From: a virus
Taxonomy: Duplodnaviria > Heunggongvirae > Uroviricota > Caudoviricetes
IMG/VR virus record: IMGVR_UViG_2721755811_000005
DNA length: 64,000 bases
Strand: one strand, 5' to 3'
The notes beneath the pieces were generated by a model. That model saw nothing but the letters and a program-made list of their open reading frames with translations. It made no database searches and was not told the origin of the DNA. Positions 3,936 to 54,640 of the stretch are shown here, piece by piece. The position numbers and the translations under genes were made by a program. Within the stretch, counting starts at the first letter, position 1. Every line of letters begins with the position of its first letter.

Positions 3936-5862
3936 GGCCTGCCAGGCTGCTATGTCAGCCGGCTTACTGTCTCTGCGCCGAGACGCGCCTCAGACTCCTG
4001 TGGCATGGGCTGACGATAATTTTTACCTGTCCAGCGAATCTTCCTACCAAGAAGGTCGCTGGGAGACGCTTCCCTACCAGGTTGCGATGCTCAACGCCAT
4101 GGGCAACGACGAGATTCGAATCGTCAACGTGATCAAGTCCGCCCGTGTCGGCTACTCCAAGATGCTGCTGGCGGCCTCGGCTTACCAGATTGAGCACAAG
4201 CGTCGGCATATCGCGTTCTTCGTGCCAGATGATGGTAGCGCCGACCTGTTCATGAAGTCCGAGATCGAAACCATGATCCGGGACGTTGGAGCCGTCCGCG
4301 CGCTGGCGCCTTGGTGCGGCAAGAAGAGCCGGGACAACACGCTCGACATCAAGAAATTCAGCCATGGCAAGCAGTTGTGGTGCCGCGGCGGTAAGGCAGC
4401 GAAGAACTATCGAGCTATTTCTGCTGACACTGTCATCTATGACGAATTGGCAGCCTTTGATCACGACATCGATAAGGAGGGGTCTCCGCTCGTCCTGGGT
4501 GACAAGCGGATTGAAGGCTCTACTTTTCCGAAATCGATCAGGGGCAGCACGCCTAAGCTGCGAGGTCCAATCGATCGAGGCGGATGCCAGATTGAGGGTG
4601 CTGTCCAGAAATCGCCACACTTGCTGCGCTATCACATTCCTTGCCCTCACTGTGGCGCAGAGCAGTATTTGAAGTGGGGCGGCAAGGATTGCGCCTATGG
4701 CATCAAGTGGGACCCTGAACAGCCGGAAGATGCATGGTACGTGTGTGAGGCTACCGGTTGCCTGATCCGTTACTCAGAGGCGCTTGAGGCGCAGTACAAG
4801 GCGCGCTGGATTTGCGAAAAGACTGGAATCTGGACCCGGGATGGTTTCGACTTTTTCGATGTGGAGGGGGCGCCGATTCCTACCCCAGAGTCCATCAGCT
4901 TCCACATTTGGACAGCCTATAGCTTCTTCGTGACCTGGGGTCGGATTGCACAGGACTTCCTTCAGGCGAAGGGTAGTCGCAGCGACCTGAAGACCTTCGT
5001 CAACACAACCCTTGGCGAGACATGGGAGGAAGACCAGGGCGAGCGCGTCGAGTGGGACGTGCTGCTCGGGCGCCGCGAGGTCTGGCAAGGCGAGATACCG
5101 GCCCAGGCTGTGATCCTCACTGGCGGCGGCGACACGCAGGATGATCGCTACGAGGGGAGAGTCTGGGCATGGGGGCCAAACGAAGAGTGCTGGCTGGTTT
5201 ATCGCTTCGTGCTGATGGGTGATCCAGGTGGTGAAGAGCTGCGCCGCAAGCGCGATCTGGAACTGCACCGCCAATTCACTCGGAGCGACGGCCTCGTGAT
5301 GAAAGTGGAGCGCTGGTGTTGGGATGCTGGCGGCCACTACATCGATCAAGTCTGCGACGACAGCAAGAAGAACGGATTGCTTTGGATGATCCCCATCATC
5401 GGCGCGCCGGTTTACGGGAAGCCCATCGCCAGCTTCCCCACGAAACGCAACAAGCGAGGCGTGTACCTGACAACTGTCGGTACGGACAACGCCAAAGAGC
5501 TGTTCTACAGCCGTCTACGACTGCCCTTAGATGTGTCGAAGTCCCAGGCAGGCATTACCCAGCCCCAAGTAATCCATTTGCCGGCCAACGACCTTGTTTG
5601 CGACGAAATGGAGGTCAGGCAACTGACGTCCGAAAGCAAGGTGCTCAAGGTCGTCAAGGGTGTGCAGCAGTATCGCTGGGACAATCAAGGGCGCCGCAAC
5701 GAAGCGCTGGACTGTTTCGTGTACGCCCTGGCGGCTCTGCGAATCAGCCAGCAACGTTTCGGCCTGGACCTGGAGCGGTTGGCCGCGGCAGGAGTTGAGG
5801 CGCTGTCGCCCACTACGGATGAGCGCCCGCGGGTGCAGTCCTCTTATTGGAAGAAAGCGTGA
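3907..5862 (+). CDS. terL: Terminase large subunit, lambda gpA family.
   Basis: 651 aa; gpA-like features including the HIPCPHCGAEQYLKWG Zn-ribbon-like motif; overlaps the terS 3' end. Confidence 0.85.
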   Translation: MTSLSTVQIEACQAAMSAGLLSLRRDAPQTPVAWADDNFYLSSESSYQEGRWETLPYQVAMLNAMGNDEIRIVNVIKSARVGYSKMLLAASAYQIEHKRRHIAFFVPDDGSADLFMKSEIETMIRDVGAVRALAPWCGKKSRDNTLDIKKFSHGKQLWCRGGKAAKNYRAISADTVIYDELAAFDHDIDKEGSPLVLGDKRIEGSTFPKSIRGSTPKLRGPIDRGGCQIEGAVQKSPHLLRYHIPCPHCGAEQYLKWGGKDCAYGIKWDPEQPEDAWYVCEATGCLIRYSEALEAQYKARWICEKTGIWTRDGFDFFDVEGAPIPTPESISFHIWTAYSFFVTWGRIAQDFLQAKGSRSDLKTFVNTTLGETWEEDQGERVEWDVLLGRREVWQGEIPAQAVILTGGGDTQDDRYEGRVWAWGPNEECWLVYRFVLMGDPGGEELRRKRDLELHRQFTRSDGLVMKVERWCWDAGGHYIDQVCDDSKKNGLLWMIPIIGAPVYGKPIASFPTKRNKRGVYLTTVGTDNAKELFYSRLRLPLDVSKSQAGITQPQVIHLPANDLVCDEMEVRQLTSESKVLKVVKGVQQYRWDNQGRRNEALDCFVYALAALRISQQRFGLDLERLAAAGVEALSPTTDERPRVQSSYWKKA

Positions 5863-6065
5863 TGACCTACACCCTGGAACAATACCGAGCCCTGAAAGGG
5901 GCGGTGGCGGAGGGGGCGCTGTCGGTTCGTTATGCGGATCGCAGCGTCACCTACCGGTCGGTCGAAGAGATGCTGCGCATCCTCCGGTTGATGGAGGATG
6001 AACTGGGGCTTTCTGCGAACAACGACGGCGGACGCCGCTACACCTCTTTTTCCAAAGGCTACTGA
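5862..6065 (+). CDS. gpW-like head completion / head-tail joining protein.
   Basis: 67 aa; MTYTLEQYRALKGAV... resembles lambda W; ATG overlaps the terL stop; lambda gene order A-W-B. Confidence 0.65.
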   Translation: MTYTLEQYRALKGAVAEGALSVRYADRSVTYRSVEEMLRILRLMEDELGLSANNDGGRRYTSFSKGY

Positions 6066-6066
6066 C

Positions 6067-7593
6067 ATGAGCGTGTTCGAGACTTGGTTTCCCGGCCTGG
6101 CCGCGAGACGCGCCGAACAGCGCCTGAAGAAAATTCGCGCGGAGCTTTCGGCAGGTCTGCTGACTCGACGTTTCGAGGGAGCCGCGGGAGGTCGGCGCAA
6201 TGAAGGTTGGCGCTCGGCGGGGACCGATGCCAATGCCGAGAACGCCCCGGCGCTTGAGCGCCTGCGCAATCGTGCGCGGGATCTGCGCCGAAACAACCCT
6301 TACGCCGAGCGGGCGGTGGCAGGCATTGCCGACAACGTGGTGGGTTCGGGCGTGGTGCCCCGACCCATGGCGCGCAGTGACCGAGCCAACAACAAGCTGG
6401 GCGTACTATGGAGGGCATGGGCCGAGACGTTGGCCTGCGACGCCGATGGATTGGAGAACTTTTATGGCCTGCAGCACAAGGTCATGGAGGCCATTGTCGA
6501 GGCTGGCGAATGCCTGGTCCGACGGCGGAAGCGCTTCAGTAGCGATGGCTTACCCGTGCCGATGCAACTGCAAGTGCTGGAAGCGGATTTTCTCGATGAA
6601 GCGCGCAGTGGCAAGAATGGCAAGAACGAAATCATCCAGGGGGTGGAGTTCGATCCGGTGGGGCGGCGTGTCGCCTATTGGCTGTTCGACGAGCACCCCG
6701 GGAGTGCGCTGGCAATGCGCTCGTTGGAGTCGAGGCGCATTCCCGCCGAGGACGTGATTCACGTTTTTCTGTCCAAGCGCCCGGGGCAGGCGCGCGGCTA
6801 CAGCTGGCTGGCGCCGGTGATGCAGCGCATGCGCAGCTTCGACGAGATGGAGGACGCGATCATGGAGCAGGCGAAGATCGCGGCGTGCTTCGCGGCCTTC
6901 GTCACCAAGGATGAGTCGATCGCGGGGCTCGAACGAAAGAGGCCGCCGCTGATCGAGCGGATGGAGCCAGGGCTGATCCAGGAGTTGGGGACTGGCGAGA
7001 GCGTGAGCTTCGCGGCACCGCCGGTTTTCAACGGCTACTCCGCCTATTCGTGGCAGGCCCTGCATGCGATTTCCGTGGGGCTTGGAGTGCCGTACGAACT
7101 GCTGGCCGGCGACCTGAAGGGCGTCAACTTCTCCAGTGGCCGGATGGGCTGGCTGCATTTCGCCCGGCGGGTGGATGTATGGCAGTGGCGGATGCTGATT
7201 CCGCAACTCTGCGAGCCGGTCTGGAAGTGGTTCATGGAGGCGCAAGCATTGCTGCCTGGCGGCATCCTGGAAGACGCCTCGTCTGAATGGGTACCGCCGC
7301 GCCGGGACATGGTGGATCCGAGTGCCGAGGTTAGCGTGATCAAGGATCGCCTGCGCCTTGGCCTGATCACGCCAGACGATGCGCTGCGCGAGATGGGCTA
7401 CACCGACCCGGACGATGTGCTGACCCGTTATGCCGCCCACCTGTCGAAGGTGGATGAACTCGGGCTGGTTTTCGACTACGACGCGCGCAAGGTCTCCAAC
7501 GGGGGCCAGGCGCAAGCCAAACCGCAGGGGAGCAATTCCCAGCAAGCACCTGAAGAGACTTCAAAAGATGACGACAATGACCCAGACGCATGA
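6067..7593 (+). CDS. Portal protein, lambda gpB family.
   Basis: About 508 aa; position after W; conserved portal-like regions (NNPYAERAVAGIADNVVGSG...). Confidence 0.8.
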   Translation: MSVFETWFPGLAARRAEQRLKKIRAELSAGLLTRRFEGAAGGRRNEGWRSAGTDANAENAPALERLRNRARDLRRNNPYAERAVAGIADNVVGSGVVPRPMARSDRANNKLGVLWRAWAETLACDADGLENFYGLQHKVMEAIVEAGECLVRRRKRFSSDGLPVPMQLQVLEADFLDEARSGKNGKNEIIQGVEFDPVGRRVAYWLFDEHPGSALAMRSLESRRIPAEDVIHVFLSKRPGQARGYSWLAPVMQRMRSFDEMEDAIMEQAKIAACFAAFVTKDESIAGLERKRPPLIERMEPGLIQELGTGESVSFAAPPVFNGYSAYSWQALHAISVGLGVPYELLAGDLKGVNFSSGRMGWLHFARRVDVWQWRMLIPQLCEPVWKWFMEAQALLPGGILEDASSEWVPPRRDMVDPSAEVSVIKDRLRLGLITPDDALREMGYTDPDDVLTRYAAHLSKVDELGLVFDYDARKVSNGGQAQAKPQGSNSQQAPEETSKDDDNDPDA

Positions 7594-10981: not shown

Positions 10982-11734
10982 ATGGCTATCGAGAAAGAGA
11001 CGTATGTGATCGGCGGACCCTTCAAGATCCGCGAGTCTGGCGCCACCGCACCCTTCCAGTTCGCTGGCCTGGTGTCCACTATCCAGCAGACCATCGAGAC
11101 CAACGAGATCACTCTGCCGGATACCACCACCCCGCAGGGTGGTGAGTACGATGCCGTTTCGCGCATCACTTCGGTCGGGTTGTCGATCAACTTCCGCGAA
11201 CTCAAGACCAGCATTCTGGCTGCCTTAGTGTGGGGGGACGCCACCAACGTTCCTTCTGCCACCCATACCGATGAAGCGCACACCGCCGTTCCGGGAGGCA
11301 CGATCGCGCTCGACTTCATGCCGCTGGAGATCACCAGCGTGAAGAGCGATGACGGCACTACGACCTACGAAGAGTTCGACGACTGGAACATGACCGGCGC
11401 CGGCATCGAAATCGTTGAAGGGGGTGCGATCTCTGCGGCCACGCCGATCAAGGTGACTTACAAGTCCGCCACCGTCGATGTGATCGAGGCGCTGACCAAC
11501 AGCGGCAAGACGTTCGAATTCCTCTTCGAGGGCGAGAACGCCGCTGGTACTCAGCGTCGCATCCAGGCGCGCTATTTCCGGTGCCGCCTGAACCCGTCGA
11601 GCCAGCAGGATTGGATCAACACCGAAGACTTCCTGGCTGCCGAGGCCACTGCCAAGGTGCTGATGGACCCGACCAAGGTCGGCGCTGGAAAGTCGAAGTA
11701 CTTCAACATCAAGAAGGAGCTGGCGACGGTGTGA
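10982..11734 (+). CDS. Major tail (tube) protein.
   Basis: 250 aa, Thr/Gly-rich beta-type protein located before the chaperone and tape-measure genes. Confidence 0.65.
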   Translation: MAIEKETYVIGGPFKIRESGATAPFQFAGLVSTIQQTIETNEITLPDTTTPQGGEYDAVSRITSVGLSINFRELKTSILAALVWGDATNVPSATHTDEAHTAVPGGTIALDFMPLEITSVKSDDGTTTYEEFDDWNMTGAGIEIVEGGAISAATPIKVTYKSATVDVIEALTNSGKTFEFLFEGENAAGTQRRIQARYFRCRLNPSSQQDWINTEDFLAAEATAKVLMDPTKVGAGKSKYFNIKKELATV

Positions 11735-11815
11735 CGCCGTTCATGCCCGGCAGGGACGCCGGATGTGGGCTCGCCCGCGTGGTGCTACAGTGGCGCCATT
11801 TAGGGAGGGGTTGAA

Positions 11816-12337
11816 ATGTACTCTAGGTCGCGCGGATTTTCCCTTATCGAGTTGATGGTAGTGGTCGTACTCTTGGCCGTTTTGGCATTCATGGCCGTTC
11901 CGAGCTTCAAGGCTATGCAGGAGGGGAACAACCATCTAGCCGGCAAAGAAGTTTTTCTCCAGCACCTGGAATTTGCCAGGTCCTATGCGCTGTCAAAAAA
12001 GACAACTGTCGAAGTCTGTGCAGAAAGTGGAGGGTGGACTGACGGATATATCGTCCGCACAGATTCTGGTAAGACTGTTTTGCTTAAGGAAAATAAGTAT
12101 AAAAACATCCATCCAGTTGGAGCGTGGAAAGGCTCTATGGAGTCTGGGTGTGTGCGATTCGTATCCAATGGGAGCGCACCCGCGGTGCCTGCCCCGACGG
12201 GGGAGTACTACGACTCTGGTTTCTTCGGTGGTGAAGAGCTGGACAAGGCTGCTTGGCGGGTGACGTTCAAGCCGTCTGGCTGGAACTGCACTGAGAAAGA
12301 TCCTAAAGACCCTAAGTGCGCCAAGAAACCAACCTGA
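11816..12337 (+). CDS. Type IV pilin-like protein (prepilin with class III signal peptide), in a low-GC moron.
   Basis: Leader MYSRSRG | FSLIELMVVVVLLAVLAF (Gly-1, Phe+1, Glu+5); C-terminal disulfide D-region CTEKDPKDPKC; local GC clearly below the phage average; own RBS GGGAGGGG. Confidence 0.8.
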   Translation: MYSRSRGFSLIELMVVVVLLAVLAFMAVPSFKAMQEGNNHLAGKEVFLQHLEFARSYALSKKTTVEVCAESGGWTDGYIVRTDSGKTVLLKENKYKNIHPVGAWKGSMESGCVRFVSNGSAPAVPAPTGEYYDSGFFGGEELDKAAWRVTFKPSGWNCTEKDPKDPKCAKKPT

Positions 12338-12408
12338 TCGCCGGCTTGTGTTCTTGGTAATGGCCTGTTGATGCTAAAGTGTGAAGCGGTTCCAATGGAG
12401 AGTCGCTT

Positions 12409-12936
12409 ATGACACGGATTTTTCCCGTTCTCGCCTTGCTTCTTGCGGTCAGTTCTGCCAGTGGGGCGACGGTCTTTAAGTGCGTCGGCCCTGACGGAAA
12501 AGTCACTTTTACCCAGCAGAATTGCCCTGACAACCAATCGCTGAACGATGTGGTTTCTGCCACCAACCAGCGCCCAAGCGGGTCAGGTGCCTCGGCTGTC
12601 ATGGCCAAGCCCAAGCAGCCATCAGGTCGTACCTATAGAGGTAGTCACCAGGTCGGCAGCGGAGTGATCGTCGTCGGTGGTTCGTCGCCAATCCCTACGT
12701 GTTCCACAGGACTCTCTGAGCGTGACCTTCGCAAGGCCAAGGTCCAGGGCAAGGTCGTTCCTGGAATGTCCAGGGAGGACGTGGAAAGCATCTACGGGAA
12801 GGTGAACCGCAACGGCAGTACCGCCGGCGCGGGTGCTGTCACCTACTGGAATGACAAGTATGTTGACCAGACGACCGTTTCGTTTGATCGTAACGGATGC
12901 GTCCAGGGTTCATACCAATCGGGCAACAAGAACTAG
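12409..12936 (+). CDS. Secreted protein with DUF4124-like N-domain and BamE/SmpA_OmlA-like C-domain (moron).
   Basis: Signal peptide (ALLLAVSSASG), VFKCVGPDGKVTFTQQNCP motif, GMSREDVESIYG... BamE-like region; low GC. Confidence 0.6.
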   Translation: MTRIFPVLALLLAVSSASGATVFKCVGPDGKVTFTQQNCPDNQSLNDVVSATNQRPSGSGASAVMAKPKQPSGRTYRGSHQVGSGVIVVGGSSPIPTCSTGLSERDLRKAKVQGKVVPGMSREDVESIYGKVNRNGSTAGAGAVTYWNDKYVDQTTVSFDRNGCVQGSYQSGNKN

Positions 12937-12957
12937 CCGATATAACGCTTTTTAAAC

Positions 12958-12990
12958 AGCCCCGCCATTCGGCGGGGTTTGTGCTTTCTG
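12958..12990 (+). terminator. Intrinsic terminator after the moron pair (CCCCGCC ATTC GGCGGGG + TTTGTGCTTT).
   Basis: 7-bp GC stem followed by a T-rich tract. Confidence 0.6.
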
Positions 12991-13000
12991 GAGGGTTGAA

Positions 13001-13303
13001 ATGTCCAGCTTTACTGCAAGTAGAGTTGTAGATATTGATGGCGTTGAGTTGACCGTGCGGGAACTTAGCGTTGCGGATGTTCGAAAGCTAATGCAAGAGG
13101 TCAGTGACCAGGATCTCGTCAGTAATGCTCTCTTCGAAGATATCAGGCTATCCGATCTGTGCCTGATGACGTCGGTTACGAAGAGCCAAATTAACGATCT
13201 CCGGCCTAGCCAACTCGCGAAGTTGCGGGATGCATGTAAAGAGGTGAACCCGCATTTTTTCGGAATGCTGGGCCGTCTCTCGAAACTCCCCGACAAGCCA
13301 TAA
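13001..13303 (+). CDS. Tail assembly chaperone (gpG-like), with downstream -1 frameshift extension (GT-like) ending at 13404.
   Basis: 100 aa immediately before the tape measure; canonical slippery T_TTT_TTC at 13255..13261; the -1 frame stays open for 47 codons to TGA 13402..13404, 2 nt before the TMP ATG. Confidence 0.6.
   Translation: MSSFTASRVVDIDGVELTVRELSVADVRKLMQEVSDQDLVSNALFEDIRLSDLCLMTSVTKSQINDLRPSQLAKLRDACKEVNPHFFGMLGRLSKLPDKP
13255..13261 (+). promoter_or_regulatory. -1 programmed ribosomal frameshift slippery heptamer T_TTT_TTC.
   Basis: In the 0 frame (CAT TTT TTC) of the chaperone gene, 45 nt before its stop. Confidence 0.55.
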
Positions 13304-13405
13304 GGAGTTTGGAGCGCGCCATTTGCGTTCTGGTGAGGCTTGGGCATCACCACGTCCTTGAATATCCCTGGTCGCTGTTCTTGACCGCGCTGAAGGCTGA
13401 ATGAA

Positions 13406-15889
13406 ATGGCTGACGTAAAGATCCGGCTGACCGCTGACCTCGATGATGCGCTGCGCGAGGTGTCAGGCTTCCGCAAGGAATATGCCGAACTGGTCAGGCA
13501 GGTCGCGCAACCTCTCAAGCGTTTAAACGATTTCACTGCTCTCGAAAGCACCCTCGAGGACACGCAACGCCAGGCGCGCTCGGCGCGCGAGCAGATCCGC
13601 ACGCTCGGCAACGAGCTGGCATCGACGATCAGGCCAAGCCGCGAATTGCAGCAGGCTTACCGGGACTCCATTTCGGACTTGCGAAGCCTGGAGCGGGCAG
13701 AGACCATCCAGATAGCCAAGCTCGGAGCGATGCGCCGGGAGTTGAAGCAGGCCGGGCTGGATACGAGAAGCCTGACAGCCGAACGGCAGCGGCTCCAGCG
13801 TGAGCTGGATCGAAACCTCCAGGCGGGCCGTAATGATGCGGCCACCACCAGCCTCCGGCAGCAGGCCGCAGCGATCAAGCAGAGCGCGATAGAGCAGCGC
13901 CGCTTCAACTTGGAGCAAGCGCGTAGCACCCTGGGAGTCGCCAGGGTGCGCGAACTGCAGGCTGCTATCGGGCAGTTGAACCAGCAATATCGCTTGCTTC
14001 GGTCGAGCGGAACGCTGTCCACAAGGGAACTTGCCGTTGCGCAGCGGGCGCTCAAAAAGCAGATCGCGGAGACCAAGAGCGAACTCAACTCGCTTGGTGC
14101 CGGCTCGCGGCTGTCGAGCATCGGCTCTCTACGCGGGAGCGGTCCAGCGCTGGCGGTTGCGGGTCTCGCAGCCGCAGTAGGTGCTGCAACGGCGAAGCTA
14201 GCGAACGGCGCCGATACTGTTGGCCGGCTCGATTCCCGGCTTCGCCTGGCGACCCGCTCGCAGGAAGAGTTCAACACTGCGCAGATCGAACTCGACCGTA
14301 TCGCGGATGATGTTCAGGGCGACGTCGGCGACCTCATCGGCCTTTATTCGCGGTTGCAGCGCCCGCTTCGGGATGCGGGCATGGATCAGCGCGCCGCCCT
14401 CGAAACCGTAGAGGCGGTATCCCTTGGCCTGAAAATCGGTGGAGCCTCTGCCGAGGAGTCGGCGTCGGTCATTACCCAGTTCTCCCAGGCTATTGCCAGT
14501 GGCGTCCTGCGGGGCGAAGAGTTCAATACCGTTCTGGAGTCCTCGGATCGCATTGCTGGCGCCCTGGCGGACTCCTTCGGAGTGACTGTCGGCCGGCTTC
14601 GCGAGATGGCTGCCGCCGGTGAACTGACCTCGGAGCAGATCGTTATCGCGCTGCGGAAGGAGTTGCCGAAGCTCCGCGAGGAGATGGCGTCGTTTGCCCC
14701 GGAGATTGGTGCAGGGCTGAACCGGATATTTTCCGAAACCCAGAAATATTGGGGGCGTCGCGCGAAGGAAACAGGCATCGTCGACTGGGTTGCGAACCAG
14801 TTGAACGATGTTGCCAAGGGGATCAACACGGCGAATACGCTGGTGAAAAAGGGCGAGGGCAGCCTCACGGCCACCCTAGCCGCCGAGAAGGCGCGTCAAG
14901 AGCAGATCGTGAAGCGCCAGAACGATGCCCTGAAGCGGGCTCGGGAACAGAACGTCGCCGATCTCCAGTCTGAGGTTGTTCGGACCAAGGCCCTCCTTGA
15001 ACAGTCCACCAAGAACCTCAACGACGCGCTATCGCGCCAGGCAGATGTCCGTAAGGAGTTTGCCGACCTGGTGAAGGGTATCCAGGCGACGCCCGCCTCC
15101 GGAACGCAGACCTTCGGTGATGCCACTGCGGCCCAGGCATCGGCTCGCAACGCGCTGACCGCCGGCAACAACCAAAAGGCGATAGAGGAGGCGCGCCGCG
15201 CGCTGCAGATCCTTCAGCAACTGAAGGATGCTGGCGCGAACAGCTACGGCTTCGAAGGCGTGGCCAAGGAGGTGGAGCGCATCGCCAACAAGGCCGCAGA
15301 GGTCGAGGTTGGTAATGCCAAGGCTGCGGATGACGTCAACCGCCTGAACCTGGCCGACCTTGAGGAGCGCATCAAGGCTGTGCAAAACGTCGAGGTGTCG
15401 TTCGGGATGGACTTCGAAAGCGCGGAGACCTTGAAGCAACAGGTCGCCGACATCGCCGCCGGCCTGGCTGAGCAACTCGTGATACCTATCACGCTGGTTC
15501 CGCCTCCGGAGATGGGCTTGCCTGGCGTGCCCAGCATCACCCCCAAGATACCCGGGTTTGCCACTGGTACGCAGAGCGCTCCCCCTGGTATGGCGTGGGT
15601 TGGGGAGCGTGGGCCGGAGTTGATGATGATGCGCGGAGGAGAGCGCATCTTCAACGCGGTGCAGTCGCTGCAGATGTCGCAGAGGTATCAACGAACTCTC
15701 CCCGAGATACCCGAGATTCCGACTGCGGCGCTTCAGCAGGCGAATCCGCCGGCAGCCATGCAAAACCTGGGATCGCTGACCCTCAACCTGGGTGGAGACG
15801 ATGCCGGTTTCACCGTTTTCGGGACACACGACACGCTCCGAGATATACGCAAGGCCGCCTCGAAGTTCGGGCGGACGCGCCCAAAATGA
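13406..15889 (+). CDS. Tail tape measure protein.
   Basis: 827 aa, N-terminal long coiled-coil, conserved TMP core (GEEFNTVLESSDRIAGALADSFGVTVGRLREMAAAGELTSEQI). Confidence 0.9.
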   Translation: MADVKIRLTADLDDALREVSGFRKEYAELVRQVAQPLKRLNDFTALESTLEDTQRQARSAREQIRTLGNELASTIRPSRELQQAYRDSISDLRSLERAETIQIAKLGAMRRELKQAGLDTRSLTAERQRLQRELDRNLQAGRNDAATTSLRQQAAAIKQSAIEQRRFNLEQARSTLGVARVRELQAAIGQLNQQYRLLRSSGTLSTRELAVAQRALKKQIAETKSELNSLGAGSRLSSIGSLRGSGPALAVAGLAAAVGAATAKLANGADTVGRLDSRLRLATRSQEEFNTAQIELDRIADDVQGDVGDLIGLYSRLQRPLRDAGMDQRAALETVEAVSLGLKIGGASAEESASVITQFSQAIASGVLRGEEFNTVLESSDRIAGALADSFGVTVGRLREMAAAGELTSEQIVIALRKELPKLREEMASFAPEIGAGLNRIFSETQKYWGRRAKETGIVDWVANQLNDVAKGINTANTLVKKGEGSLTATLAAEKARQEQIVKRQNDALKRAREQNVADLQSEVVRTKALLEQSTKNLNDALSRQADVRKEFADLVKGIQATPASGTQTFGDATAAQASARNALTAGNNQKAIEEARRALQILQQLKDAGANSYGFEGVAKEVERIANKAAEVEVGNAKAADDVNRLNLADLEERIKAVQNVEVSFGMDFESAETLKQQVADIAAGLAEQLVIPITLVPPPEMGLPGVPSITPKIPGFATGTQSAPPGMAWVGERGPELMMMRGGERIFNAVQSLQMSQRYQRTLPEIPEIPTAALQQANPPAAMQNLGSLTLNLGGDDAGFTVFGTHDTLRDIRKAASKFGRTRPK

Positions 15890-15928: not shown

Positions 15929-16450
15929 ATGATCATTCCGAACGTGATGCTTGGGGGCGTACCGATCGTGATACACGGCGGCGCCCCGCAGTGTCAGTAC
16001 CAGGCTGTAGATGGCGGCGTCGAGCGGTTGAGGCTCAGCGGAGGTGCGGCAGTACAGATGACGCACTGGCGCAAGACGGCAATCACCATCAGCGGTTCAG
16101 GATGGATCGGCACGGGGATGCTTGGACTCGACTTCGACAACCCGTTGGAGCTGAGATGCAATGCGTCGCTTGGCATTTCCGGCCGTACTGCCGCCGACCG
16201 AGTATTCACAATCCCTGGAGAAGTTCGCCCCGATGCCAGTCCGTGGGGGCTGGCGCTGGTCAGCCGTGAGTGGGTCAGAACGGACGTGTCGTCCGCCGGC
16301 CAGGTGGTAACCGTGTCGGAGATCCCAGGCGCGCAACTCTACCGCGTCGAGTGGTGGCCGCTGTTCCACGTCTTCGCGTCCATCCCTCCTGAGGCGCTTG
16401 ATTCTTCGAACAACAGCCGGACCTGGCAAATTGTCGCTGAGGAAATCTGA
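15929..16450 (+). CDS. Tail protein (distal tail / minor tail, putative).
   Basis: 173 aa; GGAG RBS 6 nt upstream of ATG 15929; first gene after the TMP. Confidence 0.5.
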   Translation: MIIPNVMLGGVPIVIHGGAPQCQYQAVDGGVERLRLSGGAAVQMTHWRKTAITISGSGWIGTGMLGLDFDNPLELRCNASLGISGRTAADRVFTIPGEVRPDASPWGLALVSREWVRTDVSSAGQVVTVSEIPGAQLYRVEWWPLFHVFASIPPEALDSSNNSRTWQIVAEEI

Positions 16451-18147
16451 TGCTCAACGGTGGACCGCTCAATAGCGCTGCGCTGAACTCGGCCGCTCAA
16501 TCCGTTGTGCCTGGTCCTGAGCCGATCATCCCAGGCTACGCATTCACATGGCGAGCAATCGTGCGTGTTGGCGATGATGACGTTACACCGCTCCTGACCG
16601 GGGAGATCGAGGTCGATCGTGAAGAGGGGGCGGCTGGCGTCGCGTCCTTTTCGATCTATCTCGGCGACGGCCCTGTTGTCCCTACAGACTGGATCGGCCG
16701 AACCGTAACCATCGACTACGCAACGGAGACCGCCGGGGAGCTGAGTCAGGGTCGGCGGTTTACGGGAAGGGTTACTCAGCCAGCCTGGAATCCTGTTCGG
16801 CGCGTCCTTGACGTCAGTTGCACGGACCAGTTGCAGCAGCGTGTAGAGGCCATGGAGATTGCGGCCGTCGACGCTCTGGCCGGCGGCGCCTGGTCCGCAG
16901 ATGTGTTCGAGCCGGTCGATGGACGCTCGCGGTGGGACTACGCCCAGGAGCGTTTGACCAGCGTAACCGGGAGCTTGGACTGTTCGCCATATGGTGCTCT
17001 CCGCGTCACGTCATGGCTTTCGGTGGCTCCTGCCTTCGAGTTCGGCCAAGGCTCTACGGTATACGGATCGCTAGCGGTCGAGTTGGCCGACCTGAGTTCG
17101 CAGACGAATAGGGTCGAGATCGAGTGCGACTACCGATTCAGCCGGCTCTGGCAGTTGAACGCATCGTATGGATGGCAGCACCCCGGGACGGGTAACGCTG
17201 TTGGCGAGGCAGGGTTTTGCAACTGGCGCGGCGATGACACCGAGTTACCGGATGTCGAGATGATCACCTCGGCGACCGAGAGCAGCGGCCAGACGTTGTT
17301 CTATGCGACCTGGTATCCACTGCCGCCCACGGGCGTCTACTGCAATCCGCCGGCGGCATGGGTCAACAACTTCACCGAGCTGCTGCTCGGCGGAAATTGG
17401 ATTGCTGGCCGGCGATGGGTGCAGTCCGTCACAGAGCGCTACCGGCTGGTCATGGAGGTTCAGCCGAGCGTGGCGGCGACCGGCCCGATTGTCGGTCGGC
17501 AGCGTGCCTCGTTCGAGATCGAGTCGGACAGGGCCGAGCGCTGGGAAAGCGAGCCGATCACGGGCGGCAGCACCGGCCACGACGACGAGAAGGATGGCAA
17601 CCGGCGCTTGTCCGCACTGAACTGCTTGTTGGCCCAGGGCGCCACGACGCTCATTGCTGCGCACCGCGGCACGACCGTGACCTGGGATGTGCCGACGTCG
17701 ATGATCCTGCCGATCGATCTTGTGCATACGCTCCGCCTCGATGATCAGGGGGCGCGCGCGGTGGGCAAGTGTCGACGCATTGTCGACCGGCTCGACCTCG
17801 CATCCGGAAGCGCCCTGACCACGATCTCTATCGCGGTGATGCGAGGCGGTGGCGGCGCAGCAGACCCCCTTGTTCCTCCTGCTGGCTCGTCCGATCCCGT
17901 CAGCCCACCGTCGGGCGGGGGACAGCTCTCGACGCAGCTTGGAGGCCGCAACGGCAGCCCCCCATATGACGATGATGCGGACGGATTCTGCGGGAACTGG
18001 AGCAACCGCGATCCTGGCGCCGAGTTGTTCCCGCGCCGCTTTTCGTTGACCGCAAACGACATTCCGGAGACCTACCGGGACGAGCATGCGCCGGAGATCG
18101 CGGCCACCTACCGGGTAGCTGTACCTGATGACGTACTGGAGATGTAG
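16450..18147 (+). CDS. Tail tip / baseplate-type structural protein (putative).
   Basis: 565 aa, overlapping start (ATGA), in the tail module. Confidence 0.5.
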   Translation: MLNGGPLNSAALNSAAQSVVPGPEPIIPGYAFTWRAIVRVGDDDVTPLLTGEIEVDREEGAAGVASFSIYLGDGPVVPTDWIGRTVTIDYATETAGELSQGRRFTGRVTQPAWNPVRRVLDVSCTDQLQQRVEAMEIAAVDALAGGAWSADVFEPVDGRSRWDYAQERLTSVTGSLDCSPYGALRVTSWLSVAPAFEFGQGSTVYGSLAVELADLSSQTNRVEIECDYRFSRLWQLNASYGWQHPGTGNAVGEAGFCNWRGDDTELPDVEMITSATESSGQTLFYATWYPLPPTGVYCNPPAAWVNNFTELLLGGNWIAGRRWVQSVTERYRLVMEVQPSVAATGPIVGRQRASFEIESDRAERWESEPITGGSTGHDDEKDGNRRLSALNCLLAQGATTLIAAHRGTTVTWDVPTSMILPIDLVHTLRLDDQGARAVGKCRRIVDRLDLASGSALTTISIAVMRGGGGAADPLVPPAGSSDPVSPPSGGGQLSTQLGGRNGSPPYDDDADGFCGNWSNRDPGAELFPRRFSLTANDIPETYRDEHAPEIAATYRVAVPDDVLEM

Positions 18148-19115: not shown

Positions 19116-19538
19116 ATGGCTCTATCAGACGAGCGCCGCGGCATCGGCGCGAGGAACGAAGCGATCCGCCGCGCCGGCGGCCAACGGGTTGAAGCGGAGC
19201 GCCGCGGTGACCAAGGCCTGACGGCGGCGCTCAACCGGCTGATCGAGCCGGAGCGCCAGGCGCGGTCGCTGCGGAAAATCGATCCTCGCGGCGCCCTGGA
19301 TGTAAAGCGCGGGCGGGCGGACTACAACCCCGCAGGCAAGCAGATCGGCGGGGGTGGCGGTATTGCGAGCCCCCTGATCGAGGAAGATGCTGGCCAGCGC
19401 GAATACTACGAACTGCAGACAATCCCCACCAGCGATGGCCTGGCCTGGCTCCGGTATCGCAGCGTGAAGAAGATCGTCATGACCGACGCGTCAGGCGCAG
19501 AAGTTGTGATGGAGTACGCGAACGATGTTTCCCAATAG
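19116..19538 (+). CDS. Tail-associated hypothetical protein.
   Basis: 140 aa. Confidence 0.4.
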   Translation: MALSDERRGIGARNEAIRRAGGQRVEAERRGDQGLTAALNRLIEPERQARSLRKIDPRGALDVKRGRADYNPAGKQIGGGGGIASPLIEEDAGQREYYELQTIPTSDGLAWLRYRSVKKIVMTDASGAEVVMEYANDVSQ

Positions 19539-54118: not shown

Positions 54119-54640
54119 ATGTACTCTAGGTCGCGCGGATTTTCCCTTATCGAGTTGATGGTAGTGGTCGTACTCTTGGCCGTTTTGGCATTCATGGCCG
54201 TTCCGAGCTTCAAGGCTATGCAGGAGGGGAACAACCATCTAGCCGGCAAAGAAGTTTTTCTCCAGCACCTGGAATTTGCCAGGTCCTATGCGCTGTCAAA
54301 AAAGACAACTGTCGAAGTCTGTGCAGAAAGTGGAGGGTGGACTGACGGATATATCGTCCGCACAGATTCTGGTAAGACTGTTTTGCTTAAGGAAAATAAG
54401 TATAAAAACATCCATCCAGTTGGAGCGTGGAAAGGCTCTATGGAGTCTGGGTGTGTGCGATTCGTATCCAATGGGAGCGCACCCGCGGTGCCTGCCCCGA
54501 CGGGGGAGTACTACGACTCTGGTTTCTTCGGTGGTGAAGAGCTGGACAAGGCTGCTTGGCGGGTGACGTTCAAGCCGTCTGGCTGGAACTGCACTGAGAA
54601 AGATCCTAAAGACCCTAAGTGCGCCAAGAAACCAACCTGA
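54119..54640 (+). CDS. Type IV pilin-like moron protein (copy 2).
   Basis: Duplicate of 11816..12337. Confidence 0.8.
   Translation: MYSRSRGFSLIELMVVVVLLAVLAFMAVPSFKAMQEGNNHLAGKEVFLQHLEFARSYALSKKTTVEVCAESGGWTDGYIVRTDSGKTVLLKENKYKNIHPVGAWKGSMESGCVRFVSNGSAPAVPAPTGEYYDSGFFGGEELDKAAWRVTFKPSGWNCTEKDPKDPKCAKKPT

Follow-up and report, generated by a model that had tools for sequence, protein, structure and literature searches.

What does a gene for a type IV pilin-like protein do in the middle of the tail gene cluster of a temperate Pseudomonas phage? The stretch of DNA analysed here (the window, 64,000 nt) runs once round a 42,303-bp genome and on into a second turn: each position i matches position i+42303 across 21,697 nt without a single mismatch. 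Positions 1-21697 and 42304-64000 are thus the same DNA, and features of the first 21.7 kb are seen twice with no biological duplication. The genome is complete and mosaic. It belongs to a temperate F10-like siphophage of Pseudomonas aeruginosa, whose relatives include LPPA33, MD8, Solano, F10, JBD68, LES phi2/phi3, PAN70 and the CF/BR series. The features relevant to the question are the following.

10982..11734, + strand: tail tube (major tail) protein (NF052337 tail_tube_6XGR, 5e-30; phrog_807, 2.3e-77)
11735..11815, + strand: intergenic region with a conserved, putative promoter region and the RBS GGGAGGGG (from conservation and the prediction of the P-FimU authors)
11816..12337, + strand: p-fimU of the CAAD group, very probably encoding a FimU mimic, 173 aa (ORF call, Pfam, primers, model)
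11816-11836, + strand: p-fimU leader, codons 1-7, with predicted cleavage after Gly7
12409..12936, + strand: second moron gene, encoding a predicted secreted DUF4124 protein of 175 aa (Pfam, PHROGs)
12958..12989, + strand: intrinsic-terminator-like hairpin with a T-rich tail, just 5' of the chaperone RBS (scan)
13001..13303, + strand: tail assembly chaperone (Phage_TAC_7 at 4.7e-5, just below the cut-off; phrog_7608; MD8 annotation)
13406..15889, + strand: tape measure protein (Pfam TMP_3, 4.4e-47)
16450..18147, + strand: CFP, the central fibre protein of an F10-like tail tip (aa identity with JBD68 gp15 97.9%; named in PMC12952977)
19525..21024, + strand: PTP4, tail-tip protein of the JBD68 type (97% aa identity to JBD68 gp19)
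54119..54640, + strand: p-fimU seen a second time through the wrap (exact repeat at +42303, where both cloning primers match again)

The pilin-like gene thus lies where the original prediction placed it, between the major tail gene and the genes for the chaperone and the tape measure protein. Its reading frame starts with ATG, encodes 173 aa and has the sequence quoted in that prediction. It also has the RBS of its own that had been claimed for it, the Shine-Dalgarno sequence GGGAGGGG at 11803-11810, 5 nt 5' of the start. The protein begins with MYSRSRG followed by FSLIELMVVVVLLAVLAFMAVP. The leader is short and basic, with Gly as its last residue, and is followed by Phe+1, Glu+5 and a hydrophobic helix. 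This corresponds to a class III prepilin signal, MYSRSRG/FSLIE (G-1/F+1/E+5), which had been noticed from the motif and which profile searches now uphold. Pfam N_methyl (PF07963) scores 33.4 bits against a cut-off of 21.2, TIGR02532 scores 27.9 bits against 16.3, and Pfam GspH (PF12019) scores 30.9 bits against 21 over residues 47-124. Together with a PHROGs match to phrog_11596, a family without known function, at 8e-78, and a 90%-identity cluster of 108 member sequences from P. aeruginosa, the Pfam scores indicate that p-fimU is a real gene and no chance ORF. Cleavage after Gly7 by the host peptidase PilD is predicted from the motif; PilD is not mentioned in the accessible text of PMC12952977. 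Near the C terminus, CTEKDPKDPKC forms the arrangement C158-x9-C168, and C168 is conserved in at least 90% of 117 GspH/FimT-family sequences. Of the disulfide-bonded region proposed there, the motif and the conserved cysteine stand, and a C158-C168 bond may be expected from them. In residues 162-173, the stretch that holds C168, the model stays below a confidence of 50.

Which kind of pilin this is can be judged from an alignment of P-FimU with 117 relatives, which served both for a sequence profile and for an AF2 model. A single-sequence search of the PDB retrieves only the N-terminal helix that is common to pilins, major pilins being matched over residues ~3-59. The profile, which was needed to reach FimU among PDB sequences, has as its best match 4ipu (PAO1 FimU), with E 2.7e-12 and across the whole globular domain. 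The model (mean pLDDT 72.5) consists of a helix at 10-61 followed by five to six strands. Confidence is high in the helix and first strands (pLDDT 83-96 over residues 11-70) and low in the loops 104-109 and 125-133 and in the last 12 residues; an earlier run with a 9-sequence alignment reached a pLDDT of 49.4 and was left out of the fold search. Foldseek against the PDB puts the FimU 4IPU chains on top (E 2.6e-4, TMt 0.71, rmsd 3.3 A), then the type II secretion (T2SS) protein EpsH of V. cholerae (2QV8, E 7e-3) and, further down, FimT (E 0.29) and PAK pilin 1OQW (E 0.54). No significant match to the model is found among viral predicted structures (BFVD). The HMM and structure search that had been suggested as a check, once run, thus favours the pilin assignment, with N_methyl and GspH above their thresholds and FimU best by profile and by fold. 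As judged from sequence and model, the protein belongs with the minor pilins of the GspH/FimT family, and among them to the FimU type. "Type IV pilin-like", as it was called, holds in the sense of such a minor pilin and not of a PilA-like major pilin. The latter was considered, as MD8 gp11 is annotated "PAK pilin-like", and rejected because the resemblance is limited to the N-terminal helix; the PilA family NF041775 gives 30 bits against 400.

The name of the Pfam domain, GspH, raises the alternative that the protein mimics a GspH/XcpU-type pseudopilin on the T2SS pseudopilus and changes secretion rather than phage adsorption. GspH is also the best NCBIfam match (TIGR01708), and EpsH the second-best fold. 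However, TIGR01708, with 34.6 bits, remains below its cut-off of 80 and aligns to residues 5-74 alone, so that a GspH equivalog is rejected; profile and fold alike place FimU first; and the published CAAD protein reportedly restores twitching and infection by pilus-dependent phages to a fimU deletion mutant (PMC12952977). We consider this alternative very improbable, and the T2SS pseudopilus, named in the original prediction as a possible target, is dropped, as nothing else points to it.

The FimU-type minor pilin has in fact been described. P-FimU was reported by Sztanko et al. in March 2024 (bioRxiv 10.1101/2024.03.29.587342) and in Cell Rep in January 2026 (PMC12952977); what is attributed here to either source refers to the accessible portions of its text. 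These two publications supersede the idea of an undescribed factor. F10-like phages encode P-FimU between the tube and chaperone genes, and the proteins fall into five sequence groups, with tested representatives named CAAD, BWH and NSYG (PMC12952977). The primers published for cloning CAAD p-fimU match the ends of the present ORF exactly (forward 11810-11834, reverse 12317-12337). Both match twice in the window, as the genome wraps; tandem prophages, considered as a cause of the double matches, are rejected in view of the exact 42,303 bp wrap. At the protein level, identity is 99-100% to MD8 gp11, Solano and LPPA33 (aligned residues 1-160), 77% to P0002, whose termini MGSK... and ...ACAVKPS are those of BWH, and 35-37% to the P-FimU of JBD68 and F10. 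Since identity between the CAAD, BWH and NSYG groups is 45-76% (PMC12952977), the value for P0002 agrees with the published range and fits a comparison of CAAD with BWH. On this sequence comparison, ORF 11816-12337 is a P-FimU of the CAAD group. From its primer sites and at the level of the group, it is apparently equivalent to the tested CAAD construct.

What P-FimU does has been established in published experiments. The p-fimU of JBD68 is transcribed in lysogens, prophage p-fimU transcription being close to the host fimU level, and JBD68 replication is unaffected by p-fimU deletion (PMC12952977). In a strain deleted for fimU, all P-FimUs rescue twitching, CAAD included, as well as susceptibility to DMS3 and D3112; the number of pili is unchanged, and P-FimU interacts with the same pilins as FimU (PMC12952977). 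JBD68 P-FimU is found at pilus tips, to which JBD68 virions also bind, and adsorption of F10-like phages, which are tip binders, is blocked by P-FimU (PMC12952977). The tail protein PTP4 sets which P-FimU blocks which phage, and swapping PTP4 alters sensitivity (PMC12952977). CAAD, assayed from a high-copy plasmid rather than from a prophage, is the only P-FimU that blocks LES2; F10 and LES3 are not blocked by it (PMC12952977).

Taken together, the gene very probably encodes a P-FimU of the CAAD group, a phage-made FimU mimic that acts by receptor replacement. In the lysogen, transcription of p-fimU would start at a conserved promoter of its own and would not depend on the surrounding late tail operon. 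The prepilin would enter the inner membrane, where its 7-residue leader is presumably cut after Gly7 by host PilD. The mature protein would join the minor-pilin priming complex (FimU-PilVWXE), replacing some of the host FimU, and would thereby come to lie at the pilus tip. Such a pilus should still work for twitching and for shaft-binding phages, while F10-like siphophages, which attach to the tip through PTP4, would no longer adsorb. This would amount to superinfection exclusion by receptor replacement, with the excluded phages set by the P-FimU allele and the PTP4 allele. The gene, its signal motif, the family, the FimU-like fold, the anatomy of the cassette and the CAAD match at both ends come from the present analysis; entry into the complex and tip location, the preserved function of the pilus, the adsorption block and its PTP4 dependence come from the cited work. 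We infer that the present copy is expressed from the prophage, because the 81 nt upstream of it are almost identical to those of JBD68. That a prophage pilin moron enters the pilus and excludes superinfecting phages, as originally proposed, is now established for the P-FimU family and apparently, given the primer matches, for this allele (PMC12952977).

The same proposal had left room for a protein that poisons the pilus or alters twitching. In its strong form, a dominant-negative pilin would block assembly or retraction and exclude all pilus-dependent phages, like Zip, Aqs1 and Tip. Overexpression of FimU alone reportedly disrupts pilus assembly (PMC12952977), and P-FimU, compared with FimU, carries additional loops and is extended at its C terminus. 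Yet cells that express P-FimU keep their number of pili, still twitch and are still infected by DMS3 and D3112, whereas Zip shuts out every pilus-dependent phage (PMC12952977). A poison pilin is accordingly highly unlikely, and the suggestion of a poisoned pilus or of altered twitching is not sustained.

The place of p-fimU in the genome allows one further reading, in which the protein is a component of the virion or of tail assembly. After all, the neighbours of the gene on either side are those for the tail tube and the chaperone, and all three share a strand. The deletion of p-fimU from JBD68 without effect on replication (PMC12952977) speaks against this, as do the class III signal, the upstream region with its author-predicted promoter, the organization as a cassette with its own terminator, and the presence in sister phages of unrelated cargo, or of the DUF4124 gene alone, in the same interval. 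A role in the virion or in tail assembly is scarcely credible.

The intergenic region 11735-11815 hardly differs between the window, MD8, Solano, F10 and JBD68, even though the proteins encoded downstream are only 35-37% identical. A simple scan of 11400-13500 for a sigma-70 consensus promoter gives no match, so the case for a promoter rests on this conservation and on the authors' data, namely promoters predicted upstream of p-fimU and prophage transcription shown for JBD68 (PMC12952977; preprint). At the other end, a terminator directly after p-fimU had been claimed. A terminator scan of 12338-12408 is empty, and this 71-nt spacer folds no better than shuffled sequences (z +0.81). The sole terminator-like match is the hairpin at 12958-12979 (9 pairs, 7 GC), which lies 3' of the second moron gene, 12409-12936, so that the terminator is not p-fimU's own in this genome. 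The two genes appear from this arrangement to be co-transcribed, and the second could modify the P-FimU phenotype here. In JBD68 and F10, the gene directly before a homologous hairpin is p-fimU; in CF55b it is the DUF4124 gene. In all cargo variants, CCCCGC...GCGGGG with a T tract stands immediately 5' of the chaperone RBS (also in L004, 3496-3516). By sequence comparison, a conserved stretch with the promoter region, the RBS and the first ~15 codons comes first; it is followed by variable cargo, then by a conserved terminator and finally by the chaperone RBS. The conserved upstream region and the conserved hairpin thus appear to bound a cassette of promoter, cargo and terminator that is exchangeable within the late tail operon.

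Base composition and distribution also bear on how the cargo came to be there. GC is 0.517 in p-fimU, 0.60 in the tail tube gene, 0.627 in the tape measure gene and 0.498 in the chaperone gene. The claim that p-fimU has a lower GC than both of its flanks therefore holds towards the tube gene (0.517 vs 0.60) and fails towards the chaperone gene (0.498). The latter has the lowest GC of the region, below either moron gene. As the chaperone gene shares the low GC, the low-GC tract at 11800-13400 reaches past the cargo and is not peculiar to the insert. The split between tail tube and chaperone genes had further been taken as the mark of a recent insertion. The interval is filled with cargo in 33 of the 33 phage records that span it, and carries cargo also in more distant Pseudomonas phages, which argues against a recent event. 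Some F10-like P. aeruginosa prophages (L018 and L019) hold other cargo between tube and chaperone genes, a Bro-N domain protein plus a divergent and shorter DUF4124 variant (150 aa, 47% identity; coordinates 4807-5640 and 6001-6453).

The second gene of the cassette, 12409-12936, leads beyond what has been published. Its product matches Pfam DUF4124 (2.3e-8) and, in its C-terminal part, weakly BamE (0.02, below the cut-off). It belongs to phrog_9068 (2.5e-102, function unknown), and its N-terminal hydrophobic segment, read by eye, is a putative signal peptide. Neither the scan nor folding reveals a terminator between p-fimU and this gene. A search of PDB sequences with the DUF4124 profile gives no match, PADLOC has no model for this protein or for P-FimU, and a literature search for DUF4124 in phages returns nothing relevant. 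The terms DUF4124 and BamE are absent from the accessible texts of the P-FimU paper and preprint.

The gene occurs in 30 phage records and, at 93% identity, is the sole cargo between tube and chaperone genes in CF/BR phages. When phage records with an F10-like central fibre are cross-tabulated against P-FimU and DUF4124 matches, with duplicates removed so as to count distinct P. aeruginosa phages, about 25 carry the DUF4124 gene only, 8 carry P-FimU only and 3 (plus this window) carry both. Neither is found in two, BR201a and CF60a, the record of the latter ending at the start of the tube gene. In phages with an F10-like tail tip, the DUF4124 gene is thus commoner as cargo than P-FimU, and almost all of them have one, the other or both. 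In MD8, an IS element with two transposase ORFs (L001, 4418-5643) lies between p-fimU and the DUF4124 gene; if the two are normally co-transcribed, this insertion would uncouple them.

Both genes also alternate at a second site, between the antiterminator Q and the holin gene. A BWH-type p-fimU occupies it in four prophages (L007-L010, 6001-6576) whose head and packaging genes are unrelated at the nucleotide level to those of this phage. HicAB accompanies Q at this p-fimU site in L007, L009 and L010. In phage D14E, the same site (L011, 17770-18306) holds a DUF4124 gene, 77% identical, most of which lacks annotation in the record. The tail tip of D14E is F10-like (CFP 82%, PTP2 92%, PTP5 96%); head and tube are not shared with the present phage. 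The notion that BWH-type p-fimU at the Q-holin site is confined to prophages that are not F10-like is countered by D14E, which is the closest isolated phage. The accessible text of the preprint mentions "atypical positions" of p-fimU and not the alternation with the DUF4124 gene (bioRxiv 10.1101/2024.03.29.587342). More remote homologues are found at 60% identity in the tube-chaperone interval of other Pseudomonas phages with unrelated head modules, and at 43-46% on the chromosome of non-aeruginosa Pseudomonas.

The linkage of the DUF4124 gene to the tail-tip module suggests a related role in exclusion, or at least a role at the cell envelope, the evidence being circumstantial. More specifically, the product might act beside P-FimU as a second factor that excludes phages at the receptor, or might assist P-FimU, in either case in connection with the tail module that binds the pilus tip; this is a tentative reading that we do not think the likelier one. 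The DUF4124/BamE-like co-cargo is nonetheless the one lead in this genome that is worth an experiment.

If PTP4 determines which phages a given P-FimU excludes, the allele carried by the phage itself becomes of interest. The PTP4 of the window is of the JBD68 type and ~62% identical to that of the LES2/MD8/LPPA33 type. Its N-terminal 40 aa are invariant in 5 of 5 sequences, which favours the start at 19525. The same invariant residues suggest that the annotation of JBD68 gp19 is 40 codons too short. MD8 and LES2 have PTP4 proteins that agree at 99% identity, and LPPA33 has one of the same LES2 type (loci L021, L022 and L023); MD8 and LPPA33 also carry a CAAD-type P-FimU. Given that CAAD is reported to block LES2, this pairing in MD8 and LPPA33 may be read as "exclude my own kind". 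The present genome, in contrast to these two, combines a CAAD P-FimU with a JBD68-type PTP4, and the P-FimU and PTP4 alleles, as compared by sequence, do reassort. Whether this phage excludes itself would depend on CAAD blocking a JBD68-type PTP4, on which the accessible text of PMC12952977 makes no statement.

In comparison with the published CAAD system, then, nothing essential differs. Phage type, tube-chaperone position, conserved upstream region and primer-matched ends are all the same, and relative to the published P-FimU groups, the FimU-like predicted fold has fewer loops here than in the JBD68 group. The FimU-mimic mechanism, apparently with this very allele, was published in 2024-2026 and is real, not new. 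The accessible published text leaves out the downstream DUF4124/BamE-like gene carried in this genome. Beyond that text, the window contributes the conserved cassette, the DUF4124/BamE-like co-cargo and the pairing of CAAD with a JBD68-type PTP4. The genome hence adds another natural carrier of CAAD, a case of allele reassortment, the anatomy of the cassette and a pointer to the DUF4124/BamE-like gene.

Bacterial FimU (PAO1, 4IPU/4IPV) has in common with P-FimU the class III signal, the long N-terminal helix, the GspH-type beta-sheet domain and C-terminal cysteines. The structural alignment shows, however, only 17-19% identity, and P-FimU differs by its extra loop(s), its lysine-rich C-terminal extension, its lower GC and its being phage-borne. 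The phage protein is interchangeable with FimU for twitching, but reportedly does not support adsorption of F10-like phages (PMC12952977). GspH/EpsH/XcpU of the T2SS and FimT, a DNA-binding minor pilin, share PF12019 and the general fold with P-FimU; they belong to different machines, P-FimU stays below the GspH cut-off, and the fold of FimT matches less well.

With P-FimU, a prophage has for the first time been reported to swap a component of a host surface receptor for a working, phage-resistant copy. This accounts for part of the arms race between phages at the pilus tip and bears on the choice of therapy phages against P. aeruginosa. Zip (JBD26 gp61, via PilZ), Aqs1 (DMS3) and Tip (D3112) are likewise prophage-encoded and stop adsorption of pilus-dependent phages. 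Aqs1 and Tip both target PilB. All three are small cytoplasmic inhibitors that turn pilus function off and thus block all pilus phages, whereas P-FimU is a structural substitute that leaves the pilus working and blocks only the tip-binding F10-like phages.
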